The translations under genes were made by a program, and so were the position numbers. A DNA stretch of 64,000 bases, from assembly GCA_021513695.1 (NCBI GenBank), contig CP084166.1:2464001-2528000 (forward strand), given 5' to 3'. This DNA is from Candidatus Heimdallarchaeum aukensis (lineage in GTDB: Archaea > Asgardarchaeota > Heimdallarchaeia > Heimdallarchaeales > Heimdallarchaeaceae). Positions 3,677 to 51,053 of the stretch are shown piece after piece. Under the pieces are notes generated by a model. The model made no database searches and was not told the DNA's origin. It saw nothing but the letters and a program-made list of their open reading frames with translations. Positions within the stretch are counted from its first letter, which is position 1; every line of letters begins with the position of its first letter.

Positions 3677-3740
3677 ATTTTAAGAACTATTTAAGAATAA
3701 GAAAAAAAGAGAAAAATTATTCTTTTTGAATTTTTTTTAT

Positions 3741-4469: not shown

Positions 4470-4480
4470 ATTATTTCATT

Positions 4481-4924
4481 TTACCAAAGCGAATCTCTTA
4501 AACGTTTTGTAGCTTCGGAGGTACTAAGAATTTGTTCACAATTATCTATAAACTCATCTGTAAGCTTATTTAGTATCATTTCTTCATTTCTGAGAAGGTT
4601 AGCATCAACAACATCTTTTATTTCAAAAGAGACTCTTGTGGTAAACCGTGTTAATTCTTCTCTTAATGAGATTTTATCACTTTCAATACATGGATCAATA
4701 ACAACGATTACTGCAAAACTAGTAGCTACTTCAAGCAGAATATCGTAAGCCTTAGTGGAAACTTCTGTAGCTTCTCCTATTTTCATATCTTTCAGCAAAC
4801 TTTGAATAGCAGAGATAACTCCTGAAAATAGAGTGGCTCGAGTTATGTCACTAGAATTCTCTTCTTTTTCTCTAAAGAAGAGAGGAATTCCAGAACGATC
4901 TATAATGTAAATTGCATGTATCAT
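4481..4924 (-). CDS. Roadblock/LC7 (MglB-like, longin-like) domain protein
   Basis: The N-terminus MIHAIYIIDRSGIPLF follows the Roadblock/LC7 pattern (h-h-h-D-x-x-G-x-P-h), and the size is about 150 aa. Confidence 0.55.
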   Translation of the reverse strand: MIHAIYIIDRSGIPLFFREKEENSSDITRATLFSGVISAIQSLLKDMKIGEATEVSTKAYDILLEVATSFAVIVVIDPCIESDKISLREELTRFTTRVSFEIKDVVDANLLRNEEMILNKLTDEFIDNCEQILSTSEATKRLRDSLW

Positions 4925-5017
4925 TATTTCAAAATATCATAGTAAAGGTAACATTTGAATTTTCCTATACATAAATTATAACCAAGTCAATTTTTGGACT
5001 ATCACTAGTTATATAAA

Positions 5018-8884: not shown

Positions 8885-9101
8885 GCCTATTTCTCTAATT
8901 TTTTTACATCTAAATAGTTATAGGATTTGGTTTCGCTTTTTCTATTTTTTTGTATAACTCTTTTGTAATATCCTCTCTCCACTTAAAAAAAGTAAAACTA
9001 TCATCAGCATTTTTGATTTGATTTTACAATATCTTTTATGTATTCATAAGAAAAAATGTTACAAACAATTAATCTTTTAAATAAGTATTAGTTTAAATTT
9101 T

Positions 9102-29095: not shown

Positions 29096-29101
29096 ATATC
29101 T

Positions 29102-31888: not shown

Positions 31889-31892
31889 AATT

Positions 31893-32993: not shown

Positions 32994-34522
32994 TTAAACA
33001 AAAAGAACAGACTAACACTTATTTAAATGATAAAGAAGTTCCATCGCATTGGAGAAGTTTAATAAAAGAACAACCTGTTTTTAAAGATACCAACAAAATT
33101 ATTCCAATAGATAAAAAAAATAATCGATTTCGTACTCTTTTATTGAACTCTATAAAAAACGCAAAACAAACGATTATGATGTGTTCTTTTATTCTTAGTG
33201 ATCCTGATATTATTGATTCGTTATTAAAAGCTTCAGAAAGGGGGGTTAGGTGTTATCTATTATTTTCTACAGAAGCTCAATTGTCAAAGGAATATAAAAA
33301 AGAACAATCAGAGTTTGATGAAAAGACCCTAGAAGAACATAAGCAGATGTTAGATAGACTTGCTGGAAAAATTTTAGCTAGAACGTGTGATCATTTACAT
33401 GCTAAATTTTTGTTAGTCGATTATGGCAATCCAGAACAGAAGGGTTTCATTTCAACTGCGAATTTTACAAAAGAAGCGCTTACAAGAAATCAGGAACTAG
33501 GTGTAATTCTTAGTGATTCTGAAATAAATTTTCTATTTAATTTCTTTGTATTAGGTTTTTGGGTCGAAAGTAAAAATGAACTAGTAAGAAAAAATAATTG
33601 GGACGCTGTTAAATTAATTAATCTTAAACCACTAAAAGGAAATAATCAAATTTTTTATACTACTAGTTCCAACCAAACCCTAAAAAACGAATTAGAAAAA
33701 ATAATCGAGAATGAAACAAAAGAATTAGTGGTCTCAAGTTATGGGTTTGATGATGAACATCCTATTGTAGAGTTACTAATAAATAAAGCACAAAATATTA
33801 ACTTGACCATAATTACAAGACCAAGAGAAAAAAATCATAAAGTCATAGAAAAATTTACAAATGCTGGAGCAAAGGTTGTTGCTTATGATTATCTACATGC
33901 AAAGTTTATTCTTTCGCCTTCAACAAATCAAGGAATAATTATGACTGCAAATTTAGAGAGTAAAGGTCTAGAAACTGGTTATGAGGTTGGTATTAAAATT
34001 ACAAGAAAATATTTTGATGAACTGTTAACAATCTCAAGAGTCTGGATCGATTCTGCACCATTAATTTGGTATAATAAGACTTCTATTAAAAATTTGGAAC
34101 CTGGTACAATCAAAATTCCTAAAGGGAAGGATTATGATACCATAGAAATTATTGATGAGTTTATAGATGAGCAAAAGATAGAGCCACAAGATTTGCATAA
34201 AATGGAGAAGTTATTAAAAGAAGAACCTAAATTAAAGAAAAATCTGGATAACAAACTTCCAAAAAAGATTATTGTTAAGAGAACAATTATTCCTCCAGTA
34301 CTTCCAAAGGATGCAGTAAAAGTAGAGTCTAAGCAACTATTTACTAGTAAGAAAAGTAGAAGAAGAGAAGCTGACGTAAAAGATAAGGAAATAAAGTTTC
34401 CCTTTGAAACTTATCGTTTAAAGAATATATATTATGTTGTTGTTAAGTCATTAAAAGATTTAGAAAAACTTAAGGAATTCCCTAAATTTAGACAAACTGT
34501 ACGTATTGTAACTAAAGGCTAA
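32990..34522 (+). CDS. phospholipase-D-family nuclease with two HKD motifs; Mokosh MkoB-like
   Basis: HKD motif 1 is DHLHAKFLLVDYGNPEQKGFISTANFT. HKD motif 2 is YLHAKFILSPSTNQGIIMTANLESKG. Confidence 0.75.
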   Translation: MIKQKEQTNTYLNDKEVPSHWRSLIKEQPVFKDTNKIIPIDKKNNRFRTLLLNSIKNAKQTIMMCSFILSDPDIIDSLLKASERGVRCYLLFSTEAQLSKEYKKEQSEFDEKTLEEHKQMLDRLAGKILARTCDHLHAKFLLVDYGNPEQKGFISTANFTKEALTRNQELGVILSDSEINFLFNFFVLGFWVESKNELVRKNNWDAVKLINLKPLKGNNQIFYTTSSNQTLKNELEKIIENETKELVVSSYGFDDEHPIVELLINKAQNINLTIITRPREKNHKVIEKFTNAGAKVVAYDYLHAKFILSPSTNQGIIMTANLESKGLETGYEVGIKITRKYFDELLTISRVWIDSAPLIWYNKTSIKNLEPGTIKIPKGKDYDTIEIIDEFIDEQKIEPQDLHKMEKLLKEEPKLKKNLDNKLPKKIIVKRTIIPPVLPKDAVKVESKQLFTSKKSRRREADVKDKEIKFPFETYRLKNIYYVVVKSLKDLEKLKEFPKFRQTVRIVTKG

Positions 34523-34568
34523 AACTGCAACTCAATAGATTTATAAATTGTAAAATGGAGCTAAAAAA

Positions 34569-35108
34569 GTGTCATACGATTTACTATATATTTCATTAAT
34601 GGGCTCATCAGAAAAAGCTGTAGCAAATTCAATATATGCTTCTTTAAAGAATTTAGTTAAAACTGATAAGAAAAATTGGGTTCTGGTGTTTGCAAAATCT
34701 AAATCAACACCAATAAATGGAGAAAGAATTGTTGAAATATTAGATGAGTATAAAAACACTTATACTAAAGCTAAATGGTACAACGCTCCTGTTGATTTTG
34801 ATGAGTTTGAAATTGAAGAATCCAACCTTCTTAAATCAATGGAACAGATAATAAATTATGTGGAAGAAACAGAAAAGAACTACTCTGACATCTTTATAGA
34901 TATAACACCAGGTAGAAAAGTAATGTCTGTTGCAGCCACTCTAGCCGCAATAAATCTCTGTAAATCATCAGAGTTCAATGATATCAAAATAATATACTAT
35001 TTGTTGAAAAATGTTGATGAACATAAAGATAAAGACGCACCTGAACTATATCCTGATGAGTACAAAGTGTCGAGTTGGTCTGTTAAAGATATAAGTAAAA
35101 GAATTTAG
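34569..35108 (+). CDS. standalone CARF-domain protein (179 aa)
   Basis: Core IFIDITPGRKVMSVAATLAAI is parallel to the Csa3-like HINITGGTKIMSSAGVIAG (the D/N-I-T-x-G-x-K signature). The N-terminal beta strand is LLYISLMGSS. There is no fused effector. Confidence 0.5.
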   Translation: MSYDLLYISLMGSSEKAVANSIYASLKNLVKTDKKNWVLVFAKSKSTPINGERIVEILDEYKNTYTKAKWYNAPVDFDEFEIEESNLLKSMEQIINYVEETEKNYSDIFIDITPGRKVMSVAATLAAINLCKSSEFNDIKIIYYLLKNVDEHKDKDAPELYPDEYKVSSWSVKDISKRI

Positions 35109-35118
35109 AGGAAAAAGA

Positions 35119-36219
35119 ATGTCTGAAAAGCCAGTAATTTTGGAGTTTAGTGAGTTTTTTGAGAGTTATTTGTCAGAAAAACCTTTCATTATTCGAGGTT
35201 GGGATGAAGATGAGAATCAAGAATTTAGAATTGAATATAATGAAGGTATTACAACATTTGATAAAAATTTAAAACCCTTAGATATAAAGAATTATCTCTT
35301 TAATATTGGTATCTTCCCTTCTGATGAAAAATGGTGGAGAGAAAAAGCATTTAAAAAATTGGAAAAACGATATAATGAAGCAATTGAAGAAGAAGAGGTT
35401 CCTGCTCTGGGTTTAGATACAAATATAATAATAAATGGCGTTTTTATCAACAGGTTAAGAGGATTATTAAAAAGGAAACTTAAATGGGAAAATCCTCTCC
35501 TTCTACTGTCTCTTGCTTCATCTCACGAGCTTCACTATGGAGCAGAATCAAAATATAATGACTCGTTTTATAACAAATCAAAATTGGACAATATATGGGA
35601 ATTTATTTTATCACTAGATTCTCAAACACAGGAACTAGCTAAGACTGTTTTTGGCACCTATAAACCTATAGAAAACAAAAACATTTTGAGTTCTTTACAT
35701 TGTAAAAGAGGAAGAATAGGGCTTATAGGTTCATATAACTATTATAAACATAAGAAACTACCAAATACTCTCATCATAAAATCGATTCATCCTTATAATG
35801 TTGCAAAGTTTGATTCAGATGGGCATAAATATAAAGGAATTGATGCAATTTACGACACTTTAATTGCTTATGAGTTCACTCAGTTTATGACCTTTACAAA
35901 TACAAAAGTAACGATTTTAACAATGGATAATTCTTTAGCAAGTTTATTACAAAATGCATCAGTGGATGTAGTTTATATACCACCTCCAAGTAAATTTCAA
36001 TTACCAAAAGAAATAATTATCCCTCAAAGAAATTGTTCTATCCTTCTGAGAGAACTATTAGTAAGATCTCCTTTTATCGTTATTGAGGATGAAAATAAAA
36101 AAATAGTATTATCAATGATTTGGATAGGACAAACAGATGAAGAAAAAGCAAAAGGAGTAATTCATGGAGTAGTGAAAGAAAAAAATAAAACTAGATATTT
36201 ATTAATAAAGAGCCAATAA
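35119..36219 (+). CDS. hypothetical protein with a possible PIN-like nuclease core
   Basis: ALGLDTNIIING is a PIN first-strand h-h-D-T-N-h-h motif. SSHELHY gives the downstream acidic residue and ILTMDNSLASLL the last (T-x-D). The spacing is longer than in a canonical PIN domain. Confidence 0.35.
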   Translation: MSEKPVILEFSEFFESYLSEKPFIIRGWDEDENQEFRIEYNEGITTFDKNLKPLDIKNYLFNIGIFPSDEKWWREKAFKKLEKRYNEAIEEEEVPALGLDTNIIINGVFINRLRGLLKRKLKWENPLLLLSLASSHELHYGAESKYNDSFYNKSKLDNIWEFILSLDSQTQELAKTVFGTYKPIENKNILSSLHCKRGRIGLIGSYNYYKHKKLPNTLIIKSIHPYNVAKFDSDGHKYKGIDAIYDTLIAYEFTQFMTFTNTKVTILTMDNSLASLLQNASVDVVYIPPPSKFQLPKEIIIPQRNCSILLRELLVRSPFIVIEDENKKIVLSMIWIGQTDEEKAKGVIHGVVKEKNKTRYLLIKSQ

Positions 36220-36305
36220 ATTCTTATCATCTTTTTGTAATTCGCTTAATTGCTTCTTAAGTATTGAATAGATAAATTAAAGCAAGCTGATGCTAAAATA
36301 TTTAA

Positions 36306-37127
36306 GTGAAAAACACTTTTACTGTTATGGAAAATTGCTCTCTTTCTTCTAAAGATATGATTAAATTATACCTAGAAGTTGAAAAGGTTGCACGGTTTTA
36401 TGGAAAAATAAGACTTGTAGTCAATGATAAATTAAAGGCTGATCTTAAGGGAGAAGAGAAGACGAATTGTGGGCAGTTTCCTGCAAATAGTAAAAAGTTC
36501 CAAAAGTATTGGGGACTATTTAAAGAATTAAATATGAATACAAAGAAAATAAACAAATCCTATAAAACAATTAGTATTCCTAAAGAAGAATATAATAATT
36601 TAAAGAATAACAATAATAAATTAAAATATCAACGTTTTAATGTTCTTCGAGACTATTTTGCAATAAAAAGAATTCAAACTCTTCCACCAGAAAAAAAAGA
36701 ACAAATAATAATTACACTAGGATATAGAGATATCTTGCCACCAAACGTAGAAATGAAAACTTCAAATGAAAACCTAATCAAAATAATTGAAAATACAGAA
36801 GATTATTTAATTTATTTTAATTTGGAATCAGAGTTTGCGTTTCGTATGATATTTAGACATTTTTTGTGTTCGTTTTTGTTTAATGAACTTAACCTTTTTC
36901 CTGATAAAGAGATTCATATTTTAAAAAGAAATAGTTTGAAAAGCAAAAATAAGAATAATAAAGCTATTTCTAATCGTCTAATTATTTATAAGAGTGACAA
37001 GAAAAACTTTGAACTTATTTCAGAAACTACTTATCAAAACTTATTGAAACTTGTGGATGATACACAACTACACCAAAAACTTATGAAAATTCATTTAGAT
37101 TTTGAAAGAAATAAAGAAGGAATATAG
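36306..37127 (+). CDS. hypothetical protein (273 aa)
   Basis: ORF with protein-like composition and no recognisable motif. Confidence 0.4.
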   Translation: MKNTFTVMENCSLSSKDMIKLYLEVEKVARFYGKIRLVVNDKLKADLKGEEKTNCGQFPANSKKFQKYWGLFKELNMNTKKINKSYKTISIPKEEYNNLKNNNNKLKYQRFNVLRDYFAIKRIQTLPPEKKEQIIITLGYRDILPPNVEMKTSNENLIKIIENTEDYLIYFNLESEFAFRMIFRHFLCSFLFNELNLFPDKEIHILKRNSLKSKNKNNKAISNRLIIYKSDKKNFELISETTYQNLLKLVDDTQLHQKLMKIHLDFERNKEGI

Positions 37128-37172
37128 GACTAAAGAAATTAGTTAACAAGTTTTTATCATTAGATAAAATCA

Positions 37173-37949
37173 TTAATAATCATTAATGCAAATATCTTTG
37201 ATTTTAAAATTCTCTTTGCCTTCTTTAATTGGATACAAAAACCACCAACGCTTTGACAGCTCTTTTTCAGATATATTCTCTATGAGATTCGAAATAAAGT
37301 AAGAAAATGACAAGTTCTCTATTTTGTAGATAGAATACACATCATTAAGTTTGTCTTGCATTTCTCTTTCTAGCCATAATTTAATAAATAGATTTTCACC
37401 CATGCAAATATGATTTACAAACCCTTGACTATTTTTTAATGCTGCAATAATGTGTCCTTGAATTAATCCTTCATTTAAACTATTAGATCCACTATAAGCG
37501 AAAATTCCATTAAACTTGCTTTTTCCAATTATTTTTCCATTAAAAGACGCATTATCCATAATTTCTTTAATGTTGCTATTGTTTACTTTTGTTTTGACTT
37601 CAATGATACCTTTAACATTATCTGGTGTTGTAATTACAAAATCTCCTTCTACAAATAACGCTGGATATGTATTATCGTATAGAATTATATCTATTTGTTT
37701 TGATATTTCAGTTCCGAAATTCTCACAATTATGTTTATAATTAATTATGAATCCTGTTCCTATGCTTATGTTAGAAGGCAAAAAACGTTTAATAACATTT
37801 TTTAATATAGCTTCCTTAAATCTTCCTTCTTCTCCCCAGTGTCTATTTCCTATAAGATTTCTTACTCTATTTTGAACAATTTTCAACTCTCTTGTAATAG
37901 AACTATGAAATTCTTTAGGGTTTATATCCCATCTATTCCTCTGATTCAT
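37173..37949 (-). CDS. hypothetical protein with a putative PD-(D/E)xK (restriction-endonuclease-fold) core
   Basis: QIDIILYDNTYPALFVEGDFVITTPDNVKGIIEVKTK follows the hhhD...hhE-h-K pattern. It lies downstream, on the same strand, of the helicase operon, but is separated from it by an IS6 insertion. Confidence 0.4.
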   Translation of the reverse strand: MNQRNRWDINPKEFHSSITRELKIVQNRVRNLIGNRHWGEEGRFKEAILKNVIKRFLPSNISIGTGFIINYKHNCENFGTEISKQIDIILYDNTYPALFVEGDFVITTPDNVKGIIEVKTKVNNSNIKEIMDNASFNGKIIGKSKFNGIFAYSGSNSLNEGLIQGHIIAALKNSQGFVNHICMGENLFIKLWLEREMQDKLNDVYSIYKIENLSFSYFISNLIENISEKELSKRWWFLYPIKEGKENFKIKDICINDY

Positions 37950-38346
37950 ATGATTTATTCTTTTTGATGTTGAGTATATATTATTTACTACGTGTAATGC
38001 TTTACTGCTTATTCTTCCTACATTGATAACAGATAAATAAGTGGTTATGAGAGCAAATGATGTAGAATGATTAATCTTAATCGTAGTCTAGTGAGACTAA
38101 GGAAAATGTAGTAAAAAACTTAGGAAGAAGAACAGGTAGATAACAAAGTGGATAGTTCACAAAAACACAGATCTATTGGTAAAAAATGAACTGTTAGGAC
38201 ATAAAAGAAAAAAAGATAAATTAAGTAATCCATGATGACGAAATAAAACGGTGATATTAAACATATTTAAAAAATATAATTTAAAGATATACAATAATGA
38301 TTCGATTCATGAATTCTCAAGCAAGAATAATAGTAATATATAAAGC

Positions 38347-39109
38347 GGTAGTGTCTAGTTTTTTTCCGACAAAAATATTTGTGGGGACTCTAATAGTAAG
38401 ATATGAAAACACAAAAACTATCTGCTCTTTTTAAGAGATGCAGAGTCCCCAAAAAAATAATAATAAAAGCTATTTATGAATATATTGGTTCAAAGAATGG
38501 TTTGAGGACAGTAGCATGGAAGAATGGTTTAACGCATCAAACATTATTGTATTGGGTAAAGAAGTTCAGGCTCTTTAGGGAAAGTTTACATAGAGTTGTA
38601 GCAGAGAGAGGGGGAATACCAGAGATTATAGTAGTAGATGAAACAGAGATTAGGACCTCTCAAGGCTCAATATATCTGTGGTTCGCGTTAGATCCTTACA
38701 ACAAGACTTTACTGGGTTTTAGTATTACTAAAGGACGGAGTAATCTTGAATGTTTACTAACTTTCCGTTATTGGCTCAAATGTTGGGGTTTTAAGCCTCG
38801 TATTGTCGTTACAGATGCAGGGGTATGGTATCCTGTCTTACTTCGTCTAGGTATCAAAATCTCCGTTATCAAAGGTGGTTTACGCTCCTATATTGAACGT
38901 TTTAATGCTACTCTTAAGAGTTATCGTTGGTTTCATTCTATTCTCCACTGCACTTGTCCTATCCGTGCCGTCTATGGCTCTACTCATCTTTCTGGTTTTC
39001 TTACTCTCTTTATGCTCCATTATAATTTCGTTCGTCCTCATCAGAGCTTGGGACATCCTCCCCTTAGTTCCTTTTTACCTAGGAGGTGGTATAAAAACTA
39101 GACACTACC
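38347..39109 (+). mobile_element. IS6-family insertion sequence (763 bp), copy 1, with 17-bp terminal inverted repeats and a 9-bp direct repeat
   Basis: Inverted repeats GGTAGTGTCTAGTTTTT at 38347 and AAAAACTAGACACTACC ending at 39109. It is flanked on both sides by ATATAAAGC, which looks like a target-site duplication. Confidence 0.85.
38403..39101 (+). CDS. IS6-family DDE transposase (232 aa)
   Basis: DDE triad in IIVVDETEI, RIVVTDAGVWYP and YIERFNATLK. Overall similarity to IS26-type transposases. Confidence 0.85.
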   Translation: MKTQKLSALFKRCRVPKKIIIKAIYEYIGSKNGLRTVAWKNGLTHQTLLYWVKKFRLFRESLHRVVAERGGIPEIIVVDETEIRTSQGSIYLWFALDPYNKTLLGFSITKGRSNLECLLTFRYWLKCWGFKPRIVVTDAGVWYPVLLRLGIKISVIKGGLRSYIERFNATLKSYRWFHSILHCTCPIRAVYGSTHLSGFLTLFMLHYNFVRPHQSLGHPPLSSFLPRRWYKN

Positions 39110-39408
39110 ATATAAAGCATTGGCAATAGTTTTATCAATAAATTTTACTGTACAATCAGCTGGAGGACAAAGTTGGGAAGCTAAAATGGTGACATAGATC
39201 ATATCGCTGTGGAAGATTGTTATTAACTCAATATTAAGCCTAATAGAAAGAAGAGATTCAATAGAAGTATAATTAAGATATCTCGTGATAATAATTAACT
39301 GTTTATTACGTACGAAGCAGTGTTACTTTATCAAAATTACAAATAAATTGACGCTTCAATATTAAATTCTTGACATTCGTGGAGAAAGATTGATTTATCA
39401 ATTGATTA

Positions 39409-41922
39409 TTATTTATCTCTATTTATGAAATTCATTAAAACCTTTAAGCAAGAATATTCTTCTAATTTACCAATATAAACATTCTTGAATTCACCATTGA
39501 TTTTTTCTCTTAAAATTAAATGTTTCTGTTTATTTATTATCAGGCGCCCACCAGTTGGTTTAAATTTTCTAAAAATAAACCACAAACTTTGAGCTTCTGG
39601 AAAAGTAATTTTTTCTGCTAATTCTTTTGGTTTGTTCAATAATAATTTTCCATTTGATTTAAAACTCAGAGTAATTATTGCTTTAGTATCTCCTAGGTAA
39701 AAATCTCCAATCTCTAGTTTTTGCAAATCTTCTTCTTCAATTTCCTCTTTTTTCTTATATTCCTTTTCTAGCGGCTTTTCTGATATAAACTCTCCAAATT
39801 CTGACCACAAACGATATTCAATATTGCTTTCACCAATCACCTCATTCCAATTTAATTTATAGAATATTTTTTCATCTGTTGTGTTTTTTACATAAATATT
39901 GAACAATGTTGTGTGAGTTTTTCCTTTTGCTTTTCGGAGTATTCTTCCCAAGGATTGAATTCTTTGTATTTTTGAAGACGATGATGCCATTATAATTCCT
40001 ATATTTGTTGAAGGGATATCTACTCCTTCAATTAGTGCCTTAGCTGATAATAGAACTCTGGTTATTCCTCTTCTATACAAAGTTAAACCAATCCTATTAA
40101 GTGATGAAGGAAATCCTGAATGATAAATGCTTACATAGGGAGAATCTAATTCAACAAAAACTCTATTTATCTCCCCTATAAGTTCATGAAATAAAATAAC
40201 TCTATCGTTTCTTGAAATTGTATATAAAGGACTAGTTTCATCGCTATATTCTTGAATATTTTTTGAAATCACTCTATTTAATATTTTTAATGTGAGTTTT
40301 TTTCTATTTTCTGACTGATATACTAAGTCCTTCCTTTCCTTTATTTTTTTGAAGTATTGGTTAATAAGTGGATCTTTTTTTTCTTTACTCATTTTCTGTA
40401 GAACGGGATAAATATTTATCATGTCAAGTGATAGTTGAGGATATTTGTAATTTAATGCATCAATAATTTTACTTATTTCTTTAGTTAAATTTTCATATTT
40501 TCTTTTTTCATGATTTGTAAGGACTACTCCATAGTTGTAAATATTGTATTTTGGTATTATTCCATCATCAAATGCATTTTTGTAAGTATAATTTCCTATT
40601 ATTTCTCCTAATTCTCGAATAATAACTTCATTAAAAGCATCATCCGATTCTCTTTCTGGTGTAGCTGATAGTCCTAAAGTGTAAGATCTCTTAGCTTTAT
40701 ATATCTCACGAAACTTCGGGGCGCCAGATTTGTGACACTCATCTACAATTAAAAGATTTGCTTGTAATTTTTCTGTAACTTTTCCTATTAGATTGTTTTC
40801 TATTGCAGAATTAATGACAAAAATGAAAATTTCTTTTTGATCAAAACTGTCTGAATAATCACCACCTTTTAATGCAATTTTTGACGGTTCAACGTGTAGT
40901 TTTTCTATAAGATTATCATACCATTGTTCTAGAAGTACTATTGTTGGGACAACTATAGTAACTGTCAAATTTGGTTCAATTTTCTTCATTTCTTGAATAA
41001 TTGCCATGGCTAAGTGTGTTTTCCCAGCTCCAGTAACTACTTTAGCAATACCTCTTTTCTGTTTCATCCATCGTTCAAGGAATTTTGATTGCCATGAATA
41101 AAGAGAATCTTGCAATTGCCATTCTAGTCCTTTAGTTTTTTTTATCTCTTTTTTCATGTCAATAATTGGGTTTTTCATGAATTCATCAAAATCGTTTTGA
41201 TGTTTAAGTATTTGATATCTCCACTTTCGATTAGGGAGATGGGCTTTAATTGTTAAGTGATATAGTTTTCTCAATTCTCTTATTGGTACATCTCTTCTAT
41301 TTAGTTTCTGTAATCGAGTAAGTAATTCTTTACTTAAATTGTGGGCGTAGGATAAAATTTCTTTTCTATCTCTCTCTCCTAAACTAATAGTTCCTTGATA
41401 GTAGTGGATCACTCCACATAAATCTAATACTTTCAAAATTTCTGACAAATATCTTCTGATTGTGTCTACATTCTCAATTTCATAATCATTTGCTTTAAGT
41501 AAGGTAATAAACTTAGAAAGTTTCAATCCTGAATTGTTTTTGCAAACGATATCATAAACATCTGGTAAAAAGTAAGCCCATTCTAAATTTCGACAAAGGC
41601 ATTTTAAAATATAGTTTTTATATTTAATTTTTCCGTCTAAATATTGGACAGAAAGATCAGAGAGAAAATAAAATTCATCTAAATATAGCATTTTATATGT
41701 AACTAAGCTGCCCAAATATCTTTTTGCCGTAGTGACTTTTATCTTTCCTTCTAATGTGTTACATAGTAGTAGCTTTGCTTCTTCTTCTGTAACTTTTTTA
41801 TCACGCAATTGCTTTAGAAAATTCTTCATTTTTTCTTCTGACTCAAGAATTGGATAAATTAGAGTCATATGGGGAACTTTCTTTTTTGTATCAATCAAAC
41901 CATCTGTCATAATTATCATCAA
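39409..41922 (-). CDS. SF2 DExH-box helicase (ResIII/DEAD-like core) with a 290-aa N-terminal unknown domain and a C-terminal repeat module shared with the two upstream genes
   Basis: Motif I VVTGAGKTHLAMAII, motif II LLIVDECHKSG, motif III LGLSATPER and motif VI QRIQSLGRILR. The C-terminus GDFYLGDTKAIITLSF...TGGRLIINKQKHLILREKINGEFKNVYIGKL is repeat-like. Confidence 0.8.
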   Translation of the reverse strand: MMIIMTDGLIDTKKKVPHMTLIYPILESEEKMKNFLKQLRDKKVTEEEAKLLLCNTLEGKIKVTTAKRYLGSLVTYKMLYLDEFYFLSDLSVQYLDGKIKYKNYILKCLCRNLEWAYFLPDVYDIVCKNNSGLKLSKFITLLKANDYEIENVDTIRRYLSEILKVLDLCGVIHYYQGTISLGERDRKEILSYAHNLSKELLTRLQKLNRRDVPIRELRKLYHLTIKAHLPNRKWRYQILKHQNDFDEFMKNPIIDMKKEIKKTKGLEWQLQDSLYSWQSKFLERWMKQKRGIAKVVTGAGKTHLAMAIIQEMKKIEPNLTVTIVVPTIVLLEQWYDNLIEKLHVEPSKIALKGGDYSDSFDQKEIFIFVINSAIENNLIGKVTEKLQANLLIVDECHKSGAPKFREIYKAKRSYTLGLSATPERESDDAFNEVIIRELGEIIGNYTYKNAFDDGIIPKYNIYNYGVVLTNHEKRKYENLTKEISKIIDALNYKYPQLSLDMINIYPVLQKMSKEKKDPLINQYFKKIKERKDLVYQSENRKKLTLKILNRVISKNIQEYSDETSPLYTISRNDRVILFHELIGEINRVFVELDSPYVSIYHSGFPSSLNRIGLTLYRRGITRVLLSAKALIEGVDIPSTNIGIIMASSSSKIQRIQSLGRILRKAKGKTHTTLFNIYVKNTTDEKIFYKLNWNEVIGESNIEYRLWSEFGEFISEKPLEKEYKKKEEIEEEDLQKLEIGDFYLGDTKAIITLSFKSNGKLLLNKPKELAEKITFPEAQSLWFIFRKFKPTGGRLIINKQKHLILREKINGEFKNVYIGKLEEYSCLKVLMNFINRDK

Positions 41923-42712
41923 TTGAGTAGATTATTTTGGGCTCTCTTGGTCTGTCAATTTGTATTTGATGCTCATATTTTCCCAGATAGATAGGATACC
42001 AACTTATTTCTTTATCTTTGTTTCGACGATCTTTTTGAGGTTTTGTATACTCATTTAACAAATTTTTTTGGAGATTAGAAAAATCACGCCATTGTTGATC
42101 AATTATATCGCTTTTTAATACATCTTTTTTTATTAGATACTTCATTCTATCTTGAGTAATGGCTGTCCACATGTGCCCATATTCATTTATCCAAATAGAA
42201 CCTGCATTAAGCCAATTATATGAATTCTGCATTCTTCCTCTTAATTGGCATATCCTTTTCAGAAAACTGTTATTAAAATTTTGTACATAATAAGTTATTG
42301 AAGTACTTTTTGTATTACTTTGAATTTTTTCTAGAAAATAAATTCGTCCTTCTCTAGAAAATTTATACTTTGAACCGTGCTTTCTTAAAAATCCTGTCCA
42401 TAAAGAGCCAATTTCTAGATTTCTGGGGTTAATCTCAATATCTTCAAAAACTAACTCCTTATTTAATTGTCCAACATAAACTGGCAACCATTCATTCTTC
42501 TTTTTTCTAATATAAGTAATAATCTCTCTTTCTTCATTAATTATTATTCGACCACTATTCTCCTTTCTGACATCAATTATGTCTTCTATAATCTTTGAGA
42601 CGTCAGTGGTTGTTGGAATTTTTATATCTCTATCTTTGTAGTAAATGCCATCAATATTATAAACATATTTTGACCCTCGAACATGCTTGTCATAAATATC
42701 TCCTTTTTTCAT
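41891..42712 (-). CDS. 273-aa protein made of two copies of the shared repeat module (possibly WGR-like)
   Basis: GDIYDKHVRGSKYVYNIDGIYY...NSGRIIINEEREIITYIRKKKNEWLPVYVGQL and GSLWTGFLRKHGSKYKFSREGRIYF...ISWYPIYLGKYEHQIQID. Both gene junctions in the operon overlap. Confidence 0.5.
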   Translation of the reverse strand: MKKGDIYDKHVRGSKYVYNIDGIYYKDRDIKIPTTTDVSKIIEDIIDVRKENSGRIIINEEREIITYIRKKKNEWLPVYVGQLNKELVFEDIEINPRNLEIGSLWTGFLRKHGSKYKFSREGRIYFLEKIQSNTKSTSITYYVQNFNNSFLKRICQLRGRMQNSYNWLNAGSIWINEYGHMWTAITQDRMKYLIKKDVLKSDIIDQQWRDFSNLQKNLLNEYTKPQKDRRNKDKEISWYPIYLGKYEHQIQIDRPREPKIIYSIDDNYDRWFD

Positions 42713-44403
42713 TTTAATACACCAATTCTCGATAAAAATTCATTATCATCTTCTTCTGACCATTCTTTCTCTAAATCATAAGGAGGTTTGAATTTTATAT
42801 TTCCTGAAAATTTACCTAAATAAATTGGAATCATTCCGTCTCTATCGGTTTTTTTCCTAATATCAATCAAATTTTTTTCAAAATTTGATAACTTTGATAT
42901 TTGGTTTAATATTCTTCTAGGATAAGGAGCAGAGTACATTAATGTCAATATTGCTCCATTCTCGTTTATTTTTATTCTTCCACCTTGTGGTTTAAATTGT
43001 AAAACTGTTTCCACTATCTTTTCATGCCCTTCAACAGCATAAAATTTCCTGCCAGATACTTTTATGAATAATTGTCGATTAGCATTAATTCCAAAAGTGG
43101 TTCCATCATATATACTTGGCCATAAATCTCCTTTTTTTAACTTTAAAGGTTTCCAGGAAATTTTATTTTCTTTGAAAATTATTTCTCCAGTTAACATTGT
43201 AACAAATATCTGTTTGTATTCGCCATTTACTTCTTTTTTAGTGATTATTTCTCCGCTTTCAGTGATACGAAAACTACCACCTAGTGGTCTACAATTAAGA
43301 AGTTTGTTTTTTACTCTATTATCAGAAAATTCTATCTCAAGTTTTGTGTCTGTACCACTCAAAGACCACCAAAAACGACCATCAGAATTAAAATGATATT
43401 TAGTTCCACGATAGATACTGTGGTAGGTTTCATTCTCTTTGGAGTCCAAAGGAGCTAACCAAAAATCAGAGCGATAAAGATATTGATCATGAGATTTTGT
43501 GGTGTTTATTTCTTCTCGTTTTTTTAATAGTTCTTTCCAGTTTTCTTGCAAAGATATTTTGCCGTCTTTTACTGTATTCACTAGTTTAAGTTCTTTTAAT
43601 GTTTCTAGCAATCTTAATCCGTTTTCTTCACCAATTAAAATCAAAATTTCATTTAATTTTAACTCCAGTTTATTATTGAATAAGAGCAAAATTAATTTTT
43701 CTAGTTCATATGGTGATGGATCAATAAGATCAATTTCATTGATTATATTTTGTAAAGTAAATTTGTTATCATCTTTTAAATTATCTATTTCAAATAGTTC
43801 ATCAATACTGTACTCAACTACGCCAAATTTTTCAATAATTAAAGATAGCTCTGATTGTTTAAAAACAAATTCATTTGATGAAGTATTAGATAAAAATTGA
43901 GTGAGATTAATTTCATTTAGAACATTAAACCATAGATGTTTATCTCTTTCAATTTGATTGGTATCGTAAGAACTATCTCCTTTAAAACAAACAATAGAAC
44001 TAATATGCCTAACTGGTTGTTGTATAAAGCGGGCTGAAATAGATTTTAATACTTCATTAATGTAGTTCATTAATTCATATCTCTGTGATCTAACTTGCCT
44101 GAAAATGTTTTTTCCTCCATTAATAGGCAATTTTTTATTTTGGTCAGTTACAACATACCATTCACTGTTTTCGGATCCAATTACTTTTCCTTCATAATTT
44201 TTGACTTCAACACTAATAATAGCTTTATCTTTGAGGATAATTAAGTCATACTGGTGTTTTCCAATAATATAATCTAAAATTATGTGAATTGTTTGCTTAC
44301 TATTTTGAAATTCATCATAGATATTTTTTAATATCTTAGTAATTTGTTTTTTTTCATTTTCTTCAAAATCTAAAAAACCTGAATAATATGCCTTCACAGT
44401 CAT
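42709..44403 (-). CDS. NERD (nuclease-related domain, PD-(D/E)xK-like) protein with a C-terminal tandem repeat module
   Basis: N-terminal HQYDLIILKDKAIISVEVKNYEGKVIG matches the NERD core (D-hhhh...hh-EVK-N-xxG-x-h). The C-terminal half has about 3 copies of the Y.G.kY.f...G.f + GG.hrI.e.GeIhT....nGE...hYhG module. Confidence 0.6.
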   Translation of the reverse strand: MTVKAYYSGFLDFEENEKKQITKILKNIYDEFQNSKQTIHIILDYIIGKHQYDLIILKDKAIISVEVKNYEGKVIGSENSEWYVVTDQNKKLPINGGKNIFRQVRSQRYELMNYINEVLKSISARFIQQPVRHISSIVCFKGDSSYDTNQIERDKHLWFNVLNEINLTQFLSNTSSNEFVFKQSELSLIIEKFGVVEYSIDELFEIDNLKDDNKFTLQNIINEIDLIDPSPYELEKLILLLFNNKLELKLNEILILIGEENGLRLLETLKELKLVNTVKDGKISLQENWKELLKKREEINTTKSHDQYLYRSDFWLAPLDSKENETYHSIYRGTKYHFNSDGRFWWSLSGTDTKLEIEFSDNRVKNKLLNCRPLGGSFRITESGEIITKKEVNGEYKQIFVTMLTGEIIFKENKISWKPLKLKKGDLWPSIYDGTTFGINANRQLFIKVSGRKFYAVEGHEKIVETVLQFKPQGGRIKINENGAILTLMYSAPYPRRILNQISKLSNFEKNLIDIRKKTDRDGMIPIYLGKFSGNIKFKPPYDLEKEWSEEDDNEFLSRIGVLK

Positions 44404-44800
44404 AATTTTTCCTCATTATGATAAATTAAGACAACTTAAAAATATTATATCTGAATTTCTTAAAAGCTTTGCTTTAAAAATGCAAAAAATTGCTATTTAT
44501 GTAGATCAAATAAAATTAATTTTTTAATAATGACGAAATTCTGTAAAAAAATAAGTTTATCCTCTCTTTAAATGATAAAATTAAATAATTCCTTTTGTTA
44601 TTTAAAGAGAGATTCAATTTAGTTTAAAAAAGGAATCCTAGAATTGATGTTTTACTGATAAAAGCACTTCCTTAATTCCAAGTTATATTATTTTAAACAA
44701 ATTTAATATAGATAATAATTAAAAAAGAATCTTGTGAGTTCGATATATTTATTCCTTCTTGATGACATTATTTTTATAATCTCTATTTAAATCATGAATT

Positions 44801-45994
44801 ATGGATGTTCTTCTTGCAATAGAATCTGTTCTTTTTGATGAGAAGAAAACTAGTACATACAAATTTGCTTTGGTAACTGCAATTATTGATTATGTCATAG
44901 AAAATCCAAACGAGTTTCCAGAAAACGGTTTTCACTATATACCAATTATTTATCTAGCAAAAAGGTGGTTATATTATTATTATCCATTGATGGTTTATGG
45001 GGAGAGAGGAGTTAGACAAGGATCAACACAGATATCTTTGCATCGATTTATTAGAGAATTTGTTGAAAAGCAAAGGGATAAGTCAATAAATTATTTTGAA
45101 CCTGAAGCAATTCTTAAAATTAAAGAAAGAATAGAAGATAATGAAATATTGGATAAGGAACTGATTTCTTTACTAATAAAGATAAGAAGAGTTATAATAA
45201 GCCAACCTTTACAATTCATTAAAATTGCCAGTAATAGTTTTATTCAAGAAGAGTTAGTAGAAGGAATAAAATTTAAAGATGAAACCTTTTCTCTCTTTGG
45301 ACTATATAACAGTTTACTAAAATATAATGAAAAAGAAAACTATCAAAGTATTAGATCGAAATCAACTAATTGGGAAGGAGAAAGAGGAGAACAAACTTGG
45401 TTGGAATTGGAAGCTGAAGAGACATTATTTATACAAATGGGACATTATACTTACAAAGAATTAGCAGAATCAAGATTTTTTATAAAAGATGCAATAATAA
45501 AAAGATGGTTAGAATATTCAGTAGAAAAGTATCTGCAAGCAGATGCTAAAGCAATTTATGCATTATTTTACGGACTAAAACTACATGAAAAAAGACTGGA
45601 AAGAGAATCAGGAAAAATACAGAAGATGAGAAAAATAGCCTTAACAGTTTTTAAACCGATGAAATGTATTTACTGTGGAAAAGAAATAAGAAAATTTGAA
45701 CTAGATCACCTAATACCTTGGTCAAAGTTTCCAGTTGATAGATTCTGGAATCTCTTTCCAGCATGCGAAAGTTGCAATAGAAAAAAATCAGATAAGATCA
45801 TAAGTATAGAAAGAAATATTCAAAGTAAAATAGCTGAATATTTAAAAGCGTGGCTGGAATATTTTATAGAAAATAAGGAAGAATTGGCAGTCCTAGGAGG
45901 AAAAGAAACTCACAATCTAAATATGGAAAATATAGAATCTTCAATTCATCTGTTATTAGAACAAATAAAAGAAATAAATCAGAATTTAATTTAG
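44801..45994 (+). CDS. HNH endonuclease with an uncharacterised N-terminal domain of about 280 aa
   Basis: C-terminal CIYCGKEI...ELDHLIPWSKFPVDRFWNLFPACESCNRKKSDK is the HNH His-Me finger with Zn-binding Cys pairs. The N-terminal region starts STYKFALVTAIIDYV. It is divergent from the NERD/helicase operon. Confidence 0.7.
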   Translation: MDVLLAIESVLFDEKKTSTYKFALVTAIIDYVIENPNEFPENGFHYIPIIYLAKRWLYYYYPLMVYGERGVRQGSTQISLHRFIREFVEKQRDKSINYFEPEAILKIKERIEDNEILDKELISLLIKIRRVIISQPLQFIKIASNSFIQEELVEGIKFKDETFSLFGLYNSLLKYNEKENYQSIRSKSTNWEGERGEQTWLELEAEETLFIQMGHYTYKELAESRFFIKDAIIKRWLEYSVEKYLQADAKAIYALFYGLKLHEKRLERESGKIQKMRKIALTVFKPMKCIYCGKEIRKFELDHLIPWSKFPVDRFWNLFPACESCNRKKSDKIISIERNIQSKIAEYLKAWLEYFIENKEELAVLGGKETHNLNMENIESSIHLLLEQIKEINQNLI

Positions 45995-46610: not shown

Positions 46611-47372
46611 GGTAGTGTCTAGTTTTTATACCACCTCCTAGGCAAAAAGGAACTAAGGGGAGGATGTCCCAAGCTCTGATGAGGACGAACGAAATTATAA
46701 TAGAGCATAAAGAGTGTAAGGAAACCAGAAAGATGGGTAGAGCCATAGACGGCACGGATAGAACATGTGCAGTGGAGAATAGAATGAAACCAACGATAGC
46801 TCTTAAGGGTAGCATTAAAACGTTCAATATAGGAGCGTAAACCACCTTTGATAACGGAGATTTTAATACCGAGACGACGTAATACAGGATACCATACCCC
46901 TGCATCTGTAACGACAATACGAGGCTTAGAACCCCAACATTTGAACCAATAACGAAAAGTTAGTAAACATTCAAGATTACTCCGTCCTTTAGTAATACTA
47001 AAACCCAGTAAAGTCTTGTTGTAAGGATCTAACGCGAACCACATGTACATTGAGCCTTGAGAGGTCTTAATCTCTGTTTCATCAACTACTATAATCTCTG
47101 GTATTCCCCCTCTCTCTGCTACAACTCTATGTAAACTTTCCCTAAAGAGCCTGAATTTCTTTACCCAATACCATAGTGCCTGGTGTGTTAAACCATTCTT
47201 CCATGCTACTGTCCTCAAACCATTCTTTGAACCGATATATTCATAAATAGCTCTTATGATTATTTTCTTGGGGATTCTGCTCCCTTTAAAAAGGGAGTAT
47301 ATTCTTAGTTTGTTCATATTTTCACATTAGAATCCCCAATAATATTTTTGTCGGGAGAAACTAGACACCACC
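46611..47372 (-). mobile_element. IS6-family insertion sequence (762 bp), copy 2, inverted relative to copy 1, with its own 10-bp flanking direct repeat
   Basis: Ends are GGTAGTGTCTAGTTTTTATACCACC at 46611 and CTAGACACCACC ending at 47372. It is flanked on both sides by ATAGAAAACC. Confidence 0.85.
46619..47317 (-). CDS. IS6-family DDE transposase (232 aa), about 90% identical to the 38403..39101 product
   Basis: Same DDE blocks as the 38403..39101 product (VVDETEI, VVTDAGVWYP, YIERFNATLK). Confidence 0.85.
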   Translation of the reverse strand: MNKLRIYSLFKGSRIPKKIIIRAIYEYIGSKNGLRTVAWKNGLTHQALWYWVKKFRLFRESLHRVVAERGGIPEIIVVDETEIKTSQGSMYMWFALDPYNKTLLGFSITKGRSNLECLLTFRYWFKCWGSKPRIVVTDAGVWYPVLRRLGIKISVIKGGLRSYIERFNATLKSYRWFHSILHCTCSIRAVYGSTHLSGFLTLFMLYYNFVRPHQSLGHPPLSSFLPRRWYKN

Positions 47373-48317: not shown

Positions 48318-49919
48318 TTATTTCTCAAGTTCTTCTTTTATAGATGGAGTTACCCCCCCATGTTTCATTCTACGTTTCTTAATATTAACTAAAAGTGTAA
48401 AAGGAACAGATAATCCTGTAACCATAGCTTCACCAGTAGCTAGCCCTTTAATTGCTTCGAAATCTTCTTTTGTCATATGTTCTGCAATGTTTTGTACATA
48501 ATTTTGGTCTTTTGGATTCATCATTCTTAGTATAAAATGGGTGTTACATTGGCTTAAAATGTCTGCATCAACTTTAGAAGGTCTTTGTGATACAATACAC
48601 AATCCCATACCAAATTTTCTTCCTTCAGAAGCAACTCTTGCAATTATCTGTTTAGAAGCAGAAGGGCTTGTTCCTGGAGGAATGAAATTATGTGCTTCTT
48701 CAATAATTGTTAAAAATGGCTTTATTTTTGATTCATAACTTGTTTTCCTCAAATCAAAGAGTTTTCTTAGAATTAATCCTACTAAAGCTTGTTGATCAAA
48801 AGCTTCAATTCCTCCTAAGTCTAATATTGATATTTGCCCTTTCTTTACAAATTCTGAAACATCAGTTCCTTTTCCAAAAGTAAAATATGGTCTTTTCAAT
48901 AGTGCTCTCATTTTATTTTCAAGTGCTCTTCTTGTTCCTTTGTGTTCTATTCTTTCTATTGACTTTTCTATTAATTCCTCAATGCTGGTTGGAGGATTTC
49001 CATCAAGTGCTTCCATATGTATTTCATCCCAACCTCGATCTAATGATGCACTCTGAGCCTCTGAAATACCATAGTACTGTGAAAGTAAAGTCTTGATTTG
49101 CCATGTCTCTAACTCTGCTGGATGAAACTTAACACTAATTGTTACTCTTTTTCTTCCATGAACATCTTCAAACTTCTTTTCAAGTAAATAATTAAATTCT
49201 CCAGGAACAAATGTTAGTACTGACTTTGAGATTTCACGTGCTTCTCTTGAATCTTCATTAGGAATAAGTGTTGAAGAATATTCGCTATGAGGATCAATAA
49301 GAATGATGGGTAGTTTGAGATTATCTATTAAATATAATTCTTCGAGAATAACACCAACAGTATAACTTTTTCCTGCTCCTGTCATTGCTAAAACTGAAAA
49401 ATGATGTGTTACAAGTTTTTCATAATCTATATATGCTGGAACATTATGATTATCTCTCAAATTACCAATAATAATTGTTCTATCCTTAATGAAAAAAGAA
49501 GAAACAAATTCATCATCGGCCATATAAATAATTGTACCAGGATTAAGAGGGATTCGAGGTCTGACAAAGGCATTTCCTATTTTTCTTCCAATTATTAAAA
49601 CTGAAAATCCCATCATTCCAGCAATTTCAGAAGCTAATCCTAAATGTTCAATAGTCATAGAACTTGCCTCTAAGTCTTTTGTTCTAAGTTTTGGCATCAT
49701 ATTTTCATCTAATAGTAATCTGTTTTTTGTCCAAACAGATATAACTCTCCCTAGTAAAAATTCTTGTTTTTTATTTTCATCTAGATATTGTATTTTTACT
49801 AGTCTACCAATACCAATACTTGGCGAGTCTTTCAGAGCAATTGCTTCTACCAAGTATGGTGTTGTTTTTCCATAAACTATTCCAACAGGTATGTTTTTTT
49901 TCTCTCTATTTTGTTCCAT
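48318..49919 (-). CDS. HerA-like FtsK/HerA-superfamily ATPase (DUF87 type)
   Basis: Walker A HFSVLAMTGAGKSYTVGVILEEL. LPIILIDPHSEYSS matches the hDPHGEY HerA motif. Walker B FLTIIEEAHNFIP. Confidence 0.8.
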   Translation of the reverse strand: MEQNREKKNIPVGIVYGKTTPYLVEAIALKDSPSIGIGRLVKIQYLDENKKQEFLLGRVISVWTKNRLLLDENMMPKLRTKDLEASSMTIEHLGLASEIAGMMGFSVLIIGRKIGNAFVRPRIPLNPGTIIYMADDEFVSSFFIKDRTIIIGNLRDNHNVPAYIDYEKLVTHHFSVLAMTGAGKSYTVGVILEELYLIDNLKLPIILIDPHSEYSSTLIPNEDSREAREISKSVLTFVPGEFNYLLEKKFEDVHGRKRVTISVKFHPAELETWQIKTLLSQYYGISEAQSASLDRGWDEIHMEALDGNPPTSIEELIEKSIERIEHKGTRRALENKMRALLKRPYFTFGKGTDVSEFVKKGQISILDLGGIEAFDQQALVGLILRKLFDLRKTSYESKIKPFLTIIEEAHNFIPPGTSPSASKQIIARVASEGRKFGMGLCIVSQRPSKVDADILSQCNTHFILRMMNPKDQNYVQNIAEHMTKEDFEAIKGLATGEAMVTGLSVPFTLLVNIKKRRMKHGGVTPSIKEELEK

Positions 49920-49928
49920 TTTCCTTCC

Positions 49929-51053
49929 TCAATGTAGTAATTTTCTCATTTTTGAATTAATCAAATCTCTGGCAATATCTGGTGCAATATCTCGTATCTC
50001 ATAAATTAGTTGGGTAAAGACTTTGGATGAAAATGATTTTGTTACTCTTGTAAGTTCGTCTACAAAAACTAAAGGATAAGGATATCCAACAACAGGTGAA
50101 ATCCGACATAAGTCATTAAATAATTCAAATAGTGAGTCCAATTTGGATAAATCCCATTTTGGAAATTCTAGATATAGTGCATGAGATGAATTAGGATACA
50201 AATAATAGGTACTACAAACACCTTCTCTTTTTAAGATTGAAATTGGGATTTCACCATGGGTGATACCAGCGACTGAAACATCTAAAGGTTCAAAATAAGC
50301 TGGTTTATCAGGCGAATATTTTCGTATTATATGTTGTAAAGCTATTCTTTCTCTCCAAGATTCATTTTCAATTAAATTTCGAAGAATTTCTAACTTTTCT
50401 TTATTAATATTTAATTTATCCATTACTTCCTTATCACACTTTAAAGCTCTTAGATATTTAGCTCTTCTCGCATCTTTTGATACTGCAATTACACTCACTT
50501 TACTCTTTTTTAAAGCTAAATTAAAAAAATCATTAGCATTTTTTTGATACTTTAGGAAAGCATCTGACAATTCTCTTATGTTAGTAACATTTACAGAAGT
50601 ATCAGGAAATGTGATAGCTCCATCAAGTAAAACAAGAGTTGGAATATCATCATCTATTTCATTAATTGCTTTTTTTGCAACATAATATTCTAAAGACTTC
50701 ATGAAAGTGGATGAAACTATTGAAGCTATATCTGAAGCTGGAGTATCAAAAAGTTGAATATCATTAAAATCAGTAATTTTTGCCTTTCCAAGTGTAATCA
50801 TAAAGGCTCGAGCAGAAGCAACAGCAAATCCCACTCCTTCTAAAGATGTATGATCCATCCCCCCATCAACGGCTATAACTCTCCAATTTTCATCTGAAAA
50901 TGATTTATATTTTGGAATATTTATGATAAGATCTTTTAAAATTTTGAAGTTATTGGCCTGTCTTCTAACTTTTGCAACAAGTTTTGGTACTTCTATTCTT
51001 CTATATCTATCAATTTCTTTCATAATAAGATTGAAATTATCCATTATCTTCAC
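49929..51053 (-). CDS. NurA-like nuclease domain protein
   Basis: WRVIAVDGGMDHTS matches the NurA first motif h-A-h-D-G-S/G. TLVLLDGAITFPD, and VIAVSKDARRAKY matches the NurA GhSKDS motif. Its stop is 10 nt before the HerA start. Confidence 0.55.
   Translation of the reverse strand: MKIMDNFNLIMKEIDRYRRIEVPKLVAKVRRQANNFKILKDLIINIPKYKSFSDENWRVIAVDGGMDHTSLEGVGFAVASARAFMITLGKAKITDFNDIQLFDTPASDIASIVSSTFMKSLEYYVAKKAINEIDDDIPTLVLLDGAITFPDTSVNVTNIRELSDAFLKYQKNANDFFNLALKKSKVSVIAVSKDARRAKYLRALKCDKEVMDKLNINKEKLEILRNLIENESWRERIALQHIIRKYSPDKPAYFEPLDVSVAGITHGEIPISILKREGVCSTYYLYPNSSHALYLEFPKWDLSKLDSLFELFNDLCRISPVVGYPYPLVFVDELTRVTKSFSSKVFTQLIYEIRDIAPDIARDLINSKMRKLLH

Follow-up and report, generated by a model that had tools for sequence, protein, structure and literature searches.

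The stretch of DNA analysed here, 64,000 nucleotides of Candidatus Heimdallarchaeum aukensis (contig CP084166.1, positions 2,464,001 to 2,528,000; hereafter the window, in whose own coordinates positions are given), contains a minus-strand operon of three genes whose products, which we call proteins A, B and C, all carry copies of the same domain, the module. The orthologous loci define the conserved unit as two paralogous two-module proteins plus an XPB-like helicase with one module, to which a NERD nuclease domain is optionally added. This gene trio may encode a self-contained, horizontally mobile helicase-nuclease complex of A, B and C that is assembled by its homologous modules and acts on invading DNA, a reading for which we find the balance of probability to be even. 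Its role would most likely be antiviral or anti-plasmid.

Three genes with one shared module

A preliminary description of the window, made from the sequence alone, had reported three minus-strand genes that overlap at both junctions, and the listing of open reading frames (ORFs) agrees with it on coordinates and overlaps alike. The genes for A and B overlap by 4 nt, and those for B and C by ~29-32 nt, depending on the choice of the helicase start codon. The GC content of the window is ~30%. The genes and their domains are listed below, with residues given in amino acids (aa) and own profiles being hidden Markov models (HMMs) that we built.

42709-44403, minus strand: protein A, NERD domain and two modules, 564-aa ORF
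43804-44403, minus strand: A aa 1-200, NERD nuclease domain with the restriction-endonuclease fold (Pfam, PADLOC, orthologue alignment)
43453-43803, minus strand: A aa 201-317, acidic helical linker of isoelectric point (pI) 4.7, conserved in NERD-type orthologues (own HMM)
43144-43452, minus strand: A aa 318-420, module copy 1 with motifs YRGT and GGSFRITE (hhalign against other modules 97.5-99.3%; AlphaFold2)
42769-43143, minus strand: A aa 421-545, module copy 2 with a two-helix insert and motifs GDLWPS, YDGT, GGRIKINE and PIYLG (hhalign, AlphaFold2)
42709-42768, minus strand: acidic C-terminal tail of A (EWSEEDDNEFLSRIG) and stop codon, with a predicted helix at model residues 233-242 (alignments, AlphaFold2)
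41891-42712, minus strand: protein B, two modules only, 273-aa ORF, with copy 1 at aa 1-95, copy 2 with a long helical insert at aa 96-255, and an acidic tail
39409-41922, minus strand: protein C, XPB-like superfamily 2 (SF2) helicase and one module, 837-aa ORF
41173-41922, minus strand: C aa 1-250, N-terminal helical domain, conserved in archaeal orthologues (own HMM)
39823-41172, minus strand: C aa 251-700, SF2 core of the XPB / PbeA (dnd_restrict_1) type (Pfam, PADLOC, PDB)
39409-39822, minus strand: acidic linker of C (aa 701-740), C-terminal module (aa 741-830; motifs TGGRLIIN and VYIGK) and stop codon

Using BLASTP, we found that residues 322-553 of A align with the whole of protein B (E 1e-12), and that the C-terminus of the helicase (aa 788-822) aligns with both A and B. 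Profiles of seven module instances, built from orthologues, were then compared pairwise by hhalign. In 20 of the 21 pairs the probability was 86-99.5% (E 5e-6 to 2e-22), and the weakest pair reached 69%; the helicase module itself gave 86-97.5% against the other module profiles and 69% against one. A and B therefore contain two modules each, and C one at its C-terminus (2 + 2 + 1). The module spans ~85-95 aa with the secondary-structure pattern beta-beta-beta-alpha-beta-beta-beta, and its hallmarks are GD-x-W, Y-(R/D)-G, GG-(S/R)-F-x-I-(N/T)-E and P-x-Y-x-G. The recurring element that the preliminary description had seen in all three products is thus real, being neither low-complexity nor a chance similarity, although it is longer than the ~60 aa proposed there.

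Protein B is paralogous to the C-terminal half of A, according to the same BLASTP alignment and to hhalign, and is devoid of any enzymatic domain. The second module copy of both proteins holds a helical insert, and acidic tails are conserved at the ends of both in the alignments. Module 1 of A aligns with module 2 of haloarchaeal relatives, and module 2 of A with their module 1 (E 1e-8 to 1e-11), which demonstrates an internal duplication. Based on an alignment of 24 two-module sequences, AlphaFold2 modelled the two-module unit with a predicted local distance difference test (pLDDT) score of 91.7 and a predicted template modelling score (pTM) of 0.84. Given this confident model, the two copies are predicted to form one compact body. 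Protein B was modelled at a pLDDT of 73.

Searches for relatives of the module outside the family came back empty. Protein B had no match in Pfam (E ≤ 0.1), PADLOC or NCBIfam, and 10 further two-module family members had none in Pfam at E ≤ 0.1; the known domains suggested earlier for the repeat (WGR, SH3-like, KTSC) did not match the module in the Pfam profile search. Profile searches of PDB sequences returned no match, and neither did Foldseek with the two-module model at E ≤ 0.001. The Foldseek list was led by PCNAs at probabilities ≤ 0.23 and template modelling (TM) scores of ~0.2, and a sliding-clamp fold (PCNA / beta-clamp) was rejected for lack of a significant structural superposition. 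Because the Pfam, PDB-sequence and Foldseek searches were all empty, we regard the module as an undescribed domain, probably a new one with no relative in Pfam, PADLOC, NCBIfam or among solved structures; a distant relationship to a known small alpha+beta fold is possible.

The N-terminus of A had been described as a PD-(D/E)xK-type NERD domain, and this assignment stands. Pfam NERD (PF08378) matches A aa 34-140 with E 1.3e-10 and 42.2 bits, above the gathering cutoff of 22.1, and conservation in five orthologues extends to the putative catalytic residues E17, D53 and E66-x-K68. The linker that follows (aa 201-317) matched no family, and it is possibly winged-helix-like.

Protein C retains intact helicase motifs (I, GAGKT at 298; II, DECH at 394; III, SAT at 419; VI, QRIQSLGRILR at 653) and matches the Pfam families ResIII (E 2.7e-25), DEAD and Helicase_C. 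Among solved structures in the PDB, its core is closest to archaeal XPB/Rad25 (E 2e-29). The NCBIfam model repair_heli_XPB scores 58 bits against a cutoff of 610, and the helicase is therefore XPB-like and not an XPB orthologue. The N-terminal domain found no match in Pfam or the PDB beyond faint winged-helix similarities (E 0.5-1.4), from which two winged helices are possibly present; hhalign detected no relation between this domain and the linker of A.

Distribution and co-inheritance of the trio

A profile search of 1.84 billion representative sequences returned 243 clusters at E ≤ 0.001, 96 of them at E ≤ 1e-10. The best 150 listed clusters are mostly stand-alone two-module proteins of 220-340 aa, and about six carry NERD. 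With B as the query, a word-index search gave five homolog clusters, all of them within A-B-C operons. The corresponding search with A yielded ~20 NERD-type orthologues, one labelled Thermoplasmata, together with haloarchaeal proteins of 311-337 aa that consist of two modules and an acidic tail. One 95%-identical database protein is labelled Candidatus Helarchaeota. No relative of the system was found on viral contigs. Full-text literature searches, whose incomplete coverage keeps them from being proof, gave no description of the trio or the module, and the RefSeq labels of the haloarchaeal genes read "hypothetical protein" and "DEAD/DEAH box helicase family protein".

The genome and metagenome scans returned 14 + 68 loci, which we mapped with our own HMMs, including those for the helicase N-domain and the NERD linker. 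The helicase is accompanied by at least two two-module genes in 59 of the 64 loci that have at least 2.5 kb of downstream flank. The trio was found in 57 of ~90 loci, most of the remainder being too short to judge. In orthologous loci, as in the window, its genes are tightly packed or overlapping. The conserved three-gene operon with products sharing one module, as first described, is thereby upheld by BLASTP, hhalign and the orthologous loci. The trio occurs mostly in Halobacteria, and also in Thermoplasmata, Methanomassiliicoccales, Asgard archaea and a bacterial-looking branch. Its architectures, among the loci that were long enough for classification, are as follows.

6 loci: NERD-type A, B and C
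34 loci: A, B and C, with A lacking NERD
15 loci: A and C, with B ~7 kb away
2 loci, on bacterial-looking contigs: C, then X, then Y, the helicase lacking the N-domain

The haloarchaeal helicases carry the same N-domain and single C-terminal module as protein C, as for example in Haloferax (L010:11841-14789). NERD is an N-terminal add-on in only ~9 loci. The preliminary description had proposed a search of other genomes for the pair of NERD and helicase with the shared module. The trio does recur, but NERD is absent from most of its versions and does not define them.

Pairwise distances computed for A, B and C over 37 complete trios are correlated at r = 0.97-0.98 (Mantel p = 0.001), indicating that the three genes travel and diverge together. 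Five haloarchaeal plasmids, megaplasmids included, carry the system; on pNATPE02 of Natrinema pellirubrum it adjoins a pAgo gene.

In seven haloarchaeal genome loci (L011, L013, L014, L016, L017, L019, L020) a conserved accessory operon of four genes is present. It encodes a DrmD/BrxH-like SNF2 helicase of 594 aa, a protein of 1125 aa that matched no family, an Mrr_cat nuclease of 321 aa and a B-type protein; with Mrr_cat, a nuclease of the PD-(D/E)xK type returns in a form other than NERD. The operon is divergent from the pair of A and helicase genes, and in L016, for example, it occupies 2743-9826 on the minus strand. Five of the seven loci have their sole B copy in this operon, and the 15 loci with a distant B include these five and metagenome loci with the same spacing. 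Possibly the operon represents an extended version of the system.

Two-module units also occur away from the trio. They are fused to an N-terminal ParE-like toxin (P0168), an N-terminal helix-turn-helix (HTH) domain (P0082) and a C-terminal TPR domain (P0058), which suggests that the unit is a portable domain. In Haloferax sp. DFSO52 (L023:9947-14123), a pair of two-module genes stands without an adjacent helicase; next in order come a weak HEPN-like gene and a gene for an HNH_2 nuclease. The two-module pair adjoins a Dam/DpnII restriction-modification pair and lies 17 kb from a full trio in the same genome; its HNH and HEPN neighbours are unrelated to the HNH and HEPN genes of the window.

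These occurrences bear on what the module does. It could serve as a sensor or nucleic-acid-binding domain through which each subunit recognises the same ligand, such as a DNA structure or end, a modified base or a viral protein. A shared module would then mean a shared specificity, and helicase and nuclease would act upon binding of that ligand. The second copies in A and B and the helicase module are basic (pI ~9.9), and each lies beside an acidic tail or linker that is possibly autoinhibitory. The HTH, ParE and TPR fusions and the one pair without a helicase, next to its HEPN-like and HNH genes, are consistent with such a role as well. On the other hand, Gly, Pro, Trp and Tyr make up most of the invariant module residues, which resemble determinants of the fold and form no clear binding or catalytic constellation. 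Furthermore, the module resembles no known nucleic-acid-binding fold, and the strict 2 + 2 + 1 co-occurrence and the co-divergence of the three chains are more typical of obligate partners. We consider the sensor function unlikely, if a serious contender, and retain assembly by the modules as the preferred reading.

Flanking genes and defence context

The genes around the operon fall outside the system. The mobile elements and the two flanking genes are:

37173-37949, minus strand: complete DUF6602 protein (Pfam E 1.5e-19)
38347-39109, plus strand: insertion sequence IS1, ~763 bp, with an rve_3/IS6-like transposase, in the spacer downstream of the helicase gene; not part of the system
44801-45994, plus strand: HNH gene, Pfam HNH at aa 289-332
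46611-47372, minus strand: insertion sequence IS2, an inverted copy 92.5% identical to IS1

The HNH gene had been proposed as a member of a defence module, which the comparison does not sustain: no homolog of it exists in the other ~97 loci, and the divergent upstream gene of locus L001 is unrelated. Likewise, no homolog of the DUF6602 gene was found in the other loci examined.

IS1 and IS2 each lie within a target-site duplication of their own, the 9-bp ATATAAAGC for IS1 and ATAGAAAACC for IS2. Between the two copies are the helicase operon and also the HNH gene. The separate target-site duplications imply two independent simple insertions, and a composite transposon made of IS1 and IS2 was rejected on these grounds. 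Removing IS1 in silico restores a spacer of 687 bp that contains no ORF longer than 77 codons. The coordinates originally given for the insertion sequence are thus correct, but no fourth gene was cut off by it, since the restored spacer holds no such ORF and the DUF6602 gene is complete. The same conclusion is favoured by a relative that is 96% identical (L007), in which collinearity with the window extends only from 42926 to 39385; synteny ends 24 nt past the helicase stop, which counts against a cut-off fourth gene.

In that relative, the insertion sequence and the DUF6602 gene are replaced by a gene directly downstream of the helicase (L007:3838-5607), which encodes an unrelated 589-aa metallo-beta-lactamase with a Pfam match to Anti-Pycsar Apyc1.

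The first 27 kb of the window (1-27 kb) contain housekeeping-like genes, and the remainder (28-64 kb) is a dense defence island by Pfam and PADLOC annotation. Its contents comprise radical SAM, SF1 helicase, PLD, CARF, DUF6602/NucC-like, HEPN, HerA/NurA, BrxC-like, TGT, GmrSD and UvrD-PD-(D/E)xK proteins. Rfam and tRNA scans of the window gave no matches. Homologous operons elsewhere also lie in defence contexts, as the preliminary description would lead one to expect, with DpnI-like genes, a DpnII restriction-modification pair, pAgo, Pbe-like clusters, a HipA toxin and plasmids among their surroundings.

Two parts of the island deserve mention in their own right. Positions 28217-37949 may form a separate defence cluster. 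It begins with a radical SAM gene (28217), a 928-aa SF1 helicase with AAA_11/AAA_12 (29102) and a 366-aa protein without assignment, and continues with a PLD-like gene (32990), a small CARF gene (34569), two unassigned proteins and the minus-strand DUF6602 gene, whose product is a NucC-like PD-(D/E)xK nuclease. The pairing of CARF with a NucC-like protein points to signalling by cyclic oligonucleotides; neither cas10 nor a CRISPR array was seen. On the other side of the operon, the segment 47424-58515 encodes a Swt1-like HEPN protein (PADLOC PDC-M34B, E 2.5e-31), a HerA-NurA pair (48318-51053), an AAA/BrxC-like ATPase of 1224 aa (51784-55458) and a TGT-family protein that is possibly DpdA-like (57283-58515). 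It is followed by GmrSD (59123-61267) and by a UvrD-C/PD-(D/E)xK Cas4-like protein (62500-63990).

Comparison with known systems and proposed mode of action

Neither Hachiman nor any other PADLOC v2 system fits the operon, in line with the preliminary description: the match to PbeA is confined to the core of the helicase, and that to PDC-M16A to the N-terminus with NERD. The PDC-M16A match is to the N-terminal NERD (E 5.6e-22 over A aa 1-210). In contrast to PDC-M16A, PglW, MkoA and MAD6, all NERD-headed, only the first ~200 residues of profiles of ~900 residues match, and the rest of A is unrelated. Hachiman, composed of the DUF1837 nuclease HamA and the helicase HamB, and Gabija-type systems resemble the trio in encoding a nuclease of the restriction-endonuclease fold together with an SF2/SF1 helicase, the two being expected to work on DNA as a single complex. 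However, no operon protein matches DUF1837/HamA in Pfam or PADLOC, and HamB models match the helicase only weakly (aa 257-400, E 1e-7 to 4e-4), far below the PbeA match. The trio also has three subunits where Hachiman and Gabija have two, and neither of those is characterised by a shared repeated module.

The strongest helicase matches in PADLOC and NCBIfam are to PbeA (E 8.5e-62 over aa 237-682) and to dnd_restrict_1 (TIGR04095; E 3e-48). These helicases have an SF2 core of the same subfamily as protein C and occur, as the trio does, in archaeal and bacterial defence loci, sometimes adjacent to it. This raises the question of a modification-dependent restriction module, for instance one sensing phosphorothioates, of the Pbe / dnd_restrict_1 type. 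PbeABCD has a CxC-ABC-DndE composition (PMC6459918, PMC10853773), in which PbeA is an HKD (PLD) endonuclease fused to an SF2 helicase (PMC10853773). The helicase of the trio, by contrast, has no HKD/PLD domain (no PLDc in its 837 aa) and has an N-terminal domain of its own and a C-terminal module, and its partners are two-module proteins without a PADLOC match to PbeB, PbeC or PbeD. The similarity is confined to the SF2 core, at 165 bits against a curated cutoff of 600 for dnd_restrict_1. No CxC ABC ATPase, DndE or dnd modification gene is found among the larger annotated ORFs of the window, several smaller ORFs lying outside the scan. An identity with Pbe was rejected on the absence of these features and on the score.

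Several haloarchaeal loci (L010, L021, L022, L045, L083 and L095) do have PbeA-like helicase genes at a distance of up to ~10 kb from the trio. The Haloferax locus L010 holds a full cluster at 4034-8276, comprising a PbeA-like helicase, a small ORF, an SMC_N-type ABC ATPase and a DndE-cognate (PF27807) gene. This proximity could reflect shared island inheritance or a functional link. It speaks for a Pbe-type restriction module, yet these neighbours have their own helicase and are hence separate systems. Altogether we see only a slim prospect that the trio is a module of this kind.

Archaeal XPB works with a partner nuclease, Bax1, and thus offers another parallel: the closest solved helicase core, and an XPB-type translocase with a separately encoded nuclease. 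The trio might accordingly be a machine for DNA repair or replication restart without an immune function. SbcCD-like genes that follow the trio in two loci would suit such a role, as does the XPB/Rad25-like core. Unlike XPB-Bax1, which is conserved and housekeeping, the trio has NERD instead of Bax1, a third subunit and a shared module, and it is patchy, mobile and located in defence islands. It is also rare, as the 243 clusters found at E ≤ 0.001 attest; it is carried on plasmids, its flanking regions vary and synteny is lost at the edge of the operon. The SbcCD association is not recurrent either. SbcCD was rejected as a recurrent partner, as it occurs in two loci only, with two mutually unrelated pairs, and is absent from the others. 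A repair or restart machine is accordingly very improbable in our view.

A defence module of helicase and nuclease, as originally proposed, remains the best reading, given the conservation of the trio and the defence contexts of homologous operons. In such a system, protein C would be an XPB-like SF2 ATPase, probably a translocase or opener of double-stranded DNA, whose N-terminal helical domain probably binds DNA, and A would supply the NERD nuclease. The five homologous modules would act as glue: in A and B the two copies are predicted to pack into one compact unit, and the lone helicase module may dock onto these two-module units to give an A-B-C complex. ATP-driven tracking of DNA by C could then bring the nuclease of A to foreign DNA or license it there. 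Relatives without the NERD fusion may have a separate nuclease, as with the Mrr-type gene, or their complex may work without cutting. From the arrangement described above we infer a DNA target and a role in defence, as well as complex formation through the modules.

Several observations weigh against this proposal. Assembly through the modules is something we infer, and the basic helicase module and second module copies of A and B (pI ~9.9) could equally fit nucleic-acid binding. The HTH, ParE and TPR fusions and the helicase-less pair suit a sensor or ligand-binding role as well as they suit glue. Most family members are without a fused nuclease, so that cleavage may not be the core activity. 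Finally, the mirror-tree correlation stems partly from shared phylogeny, and the defence-island context is suggestive, not proof.

Helicase-nuclease immunity is a known kind, and by the features compared the trio falls outside Hachiman, Gabija, Pbe and XPB-Bax1. A bolder version of the proposal, which we offer as speculation and think rather doubtful, is an undescribed and widely dispersed immune system of archaea and possibly bacteria in which a new fold would be a pseudo-symmetric assembly device. Five modules from three chains would form a single DNA-engaging platform, possibly ring- or clamp-like, that couples an XPB-like motor to nucleases that can be exchanged (a fused NERD, Mrr in trans, or no nuclease).

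If the trio is a defence system, it would represent a new multi-subunit helicase-nuclease architecture with a new domain, spanning Asgard archaea, Thermoplasmata, many Halobacteria and a bacterial-looking branch. One module distributed across three chains (2 + 2 + 1) would be an unusual design principle for the assembly or regulation of an immune complex, and its haloarchaeal versions reside in genetically tractable hosts (Haloferax, Natrinema) with known viruses.

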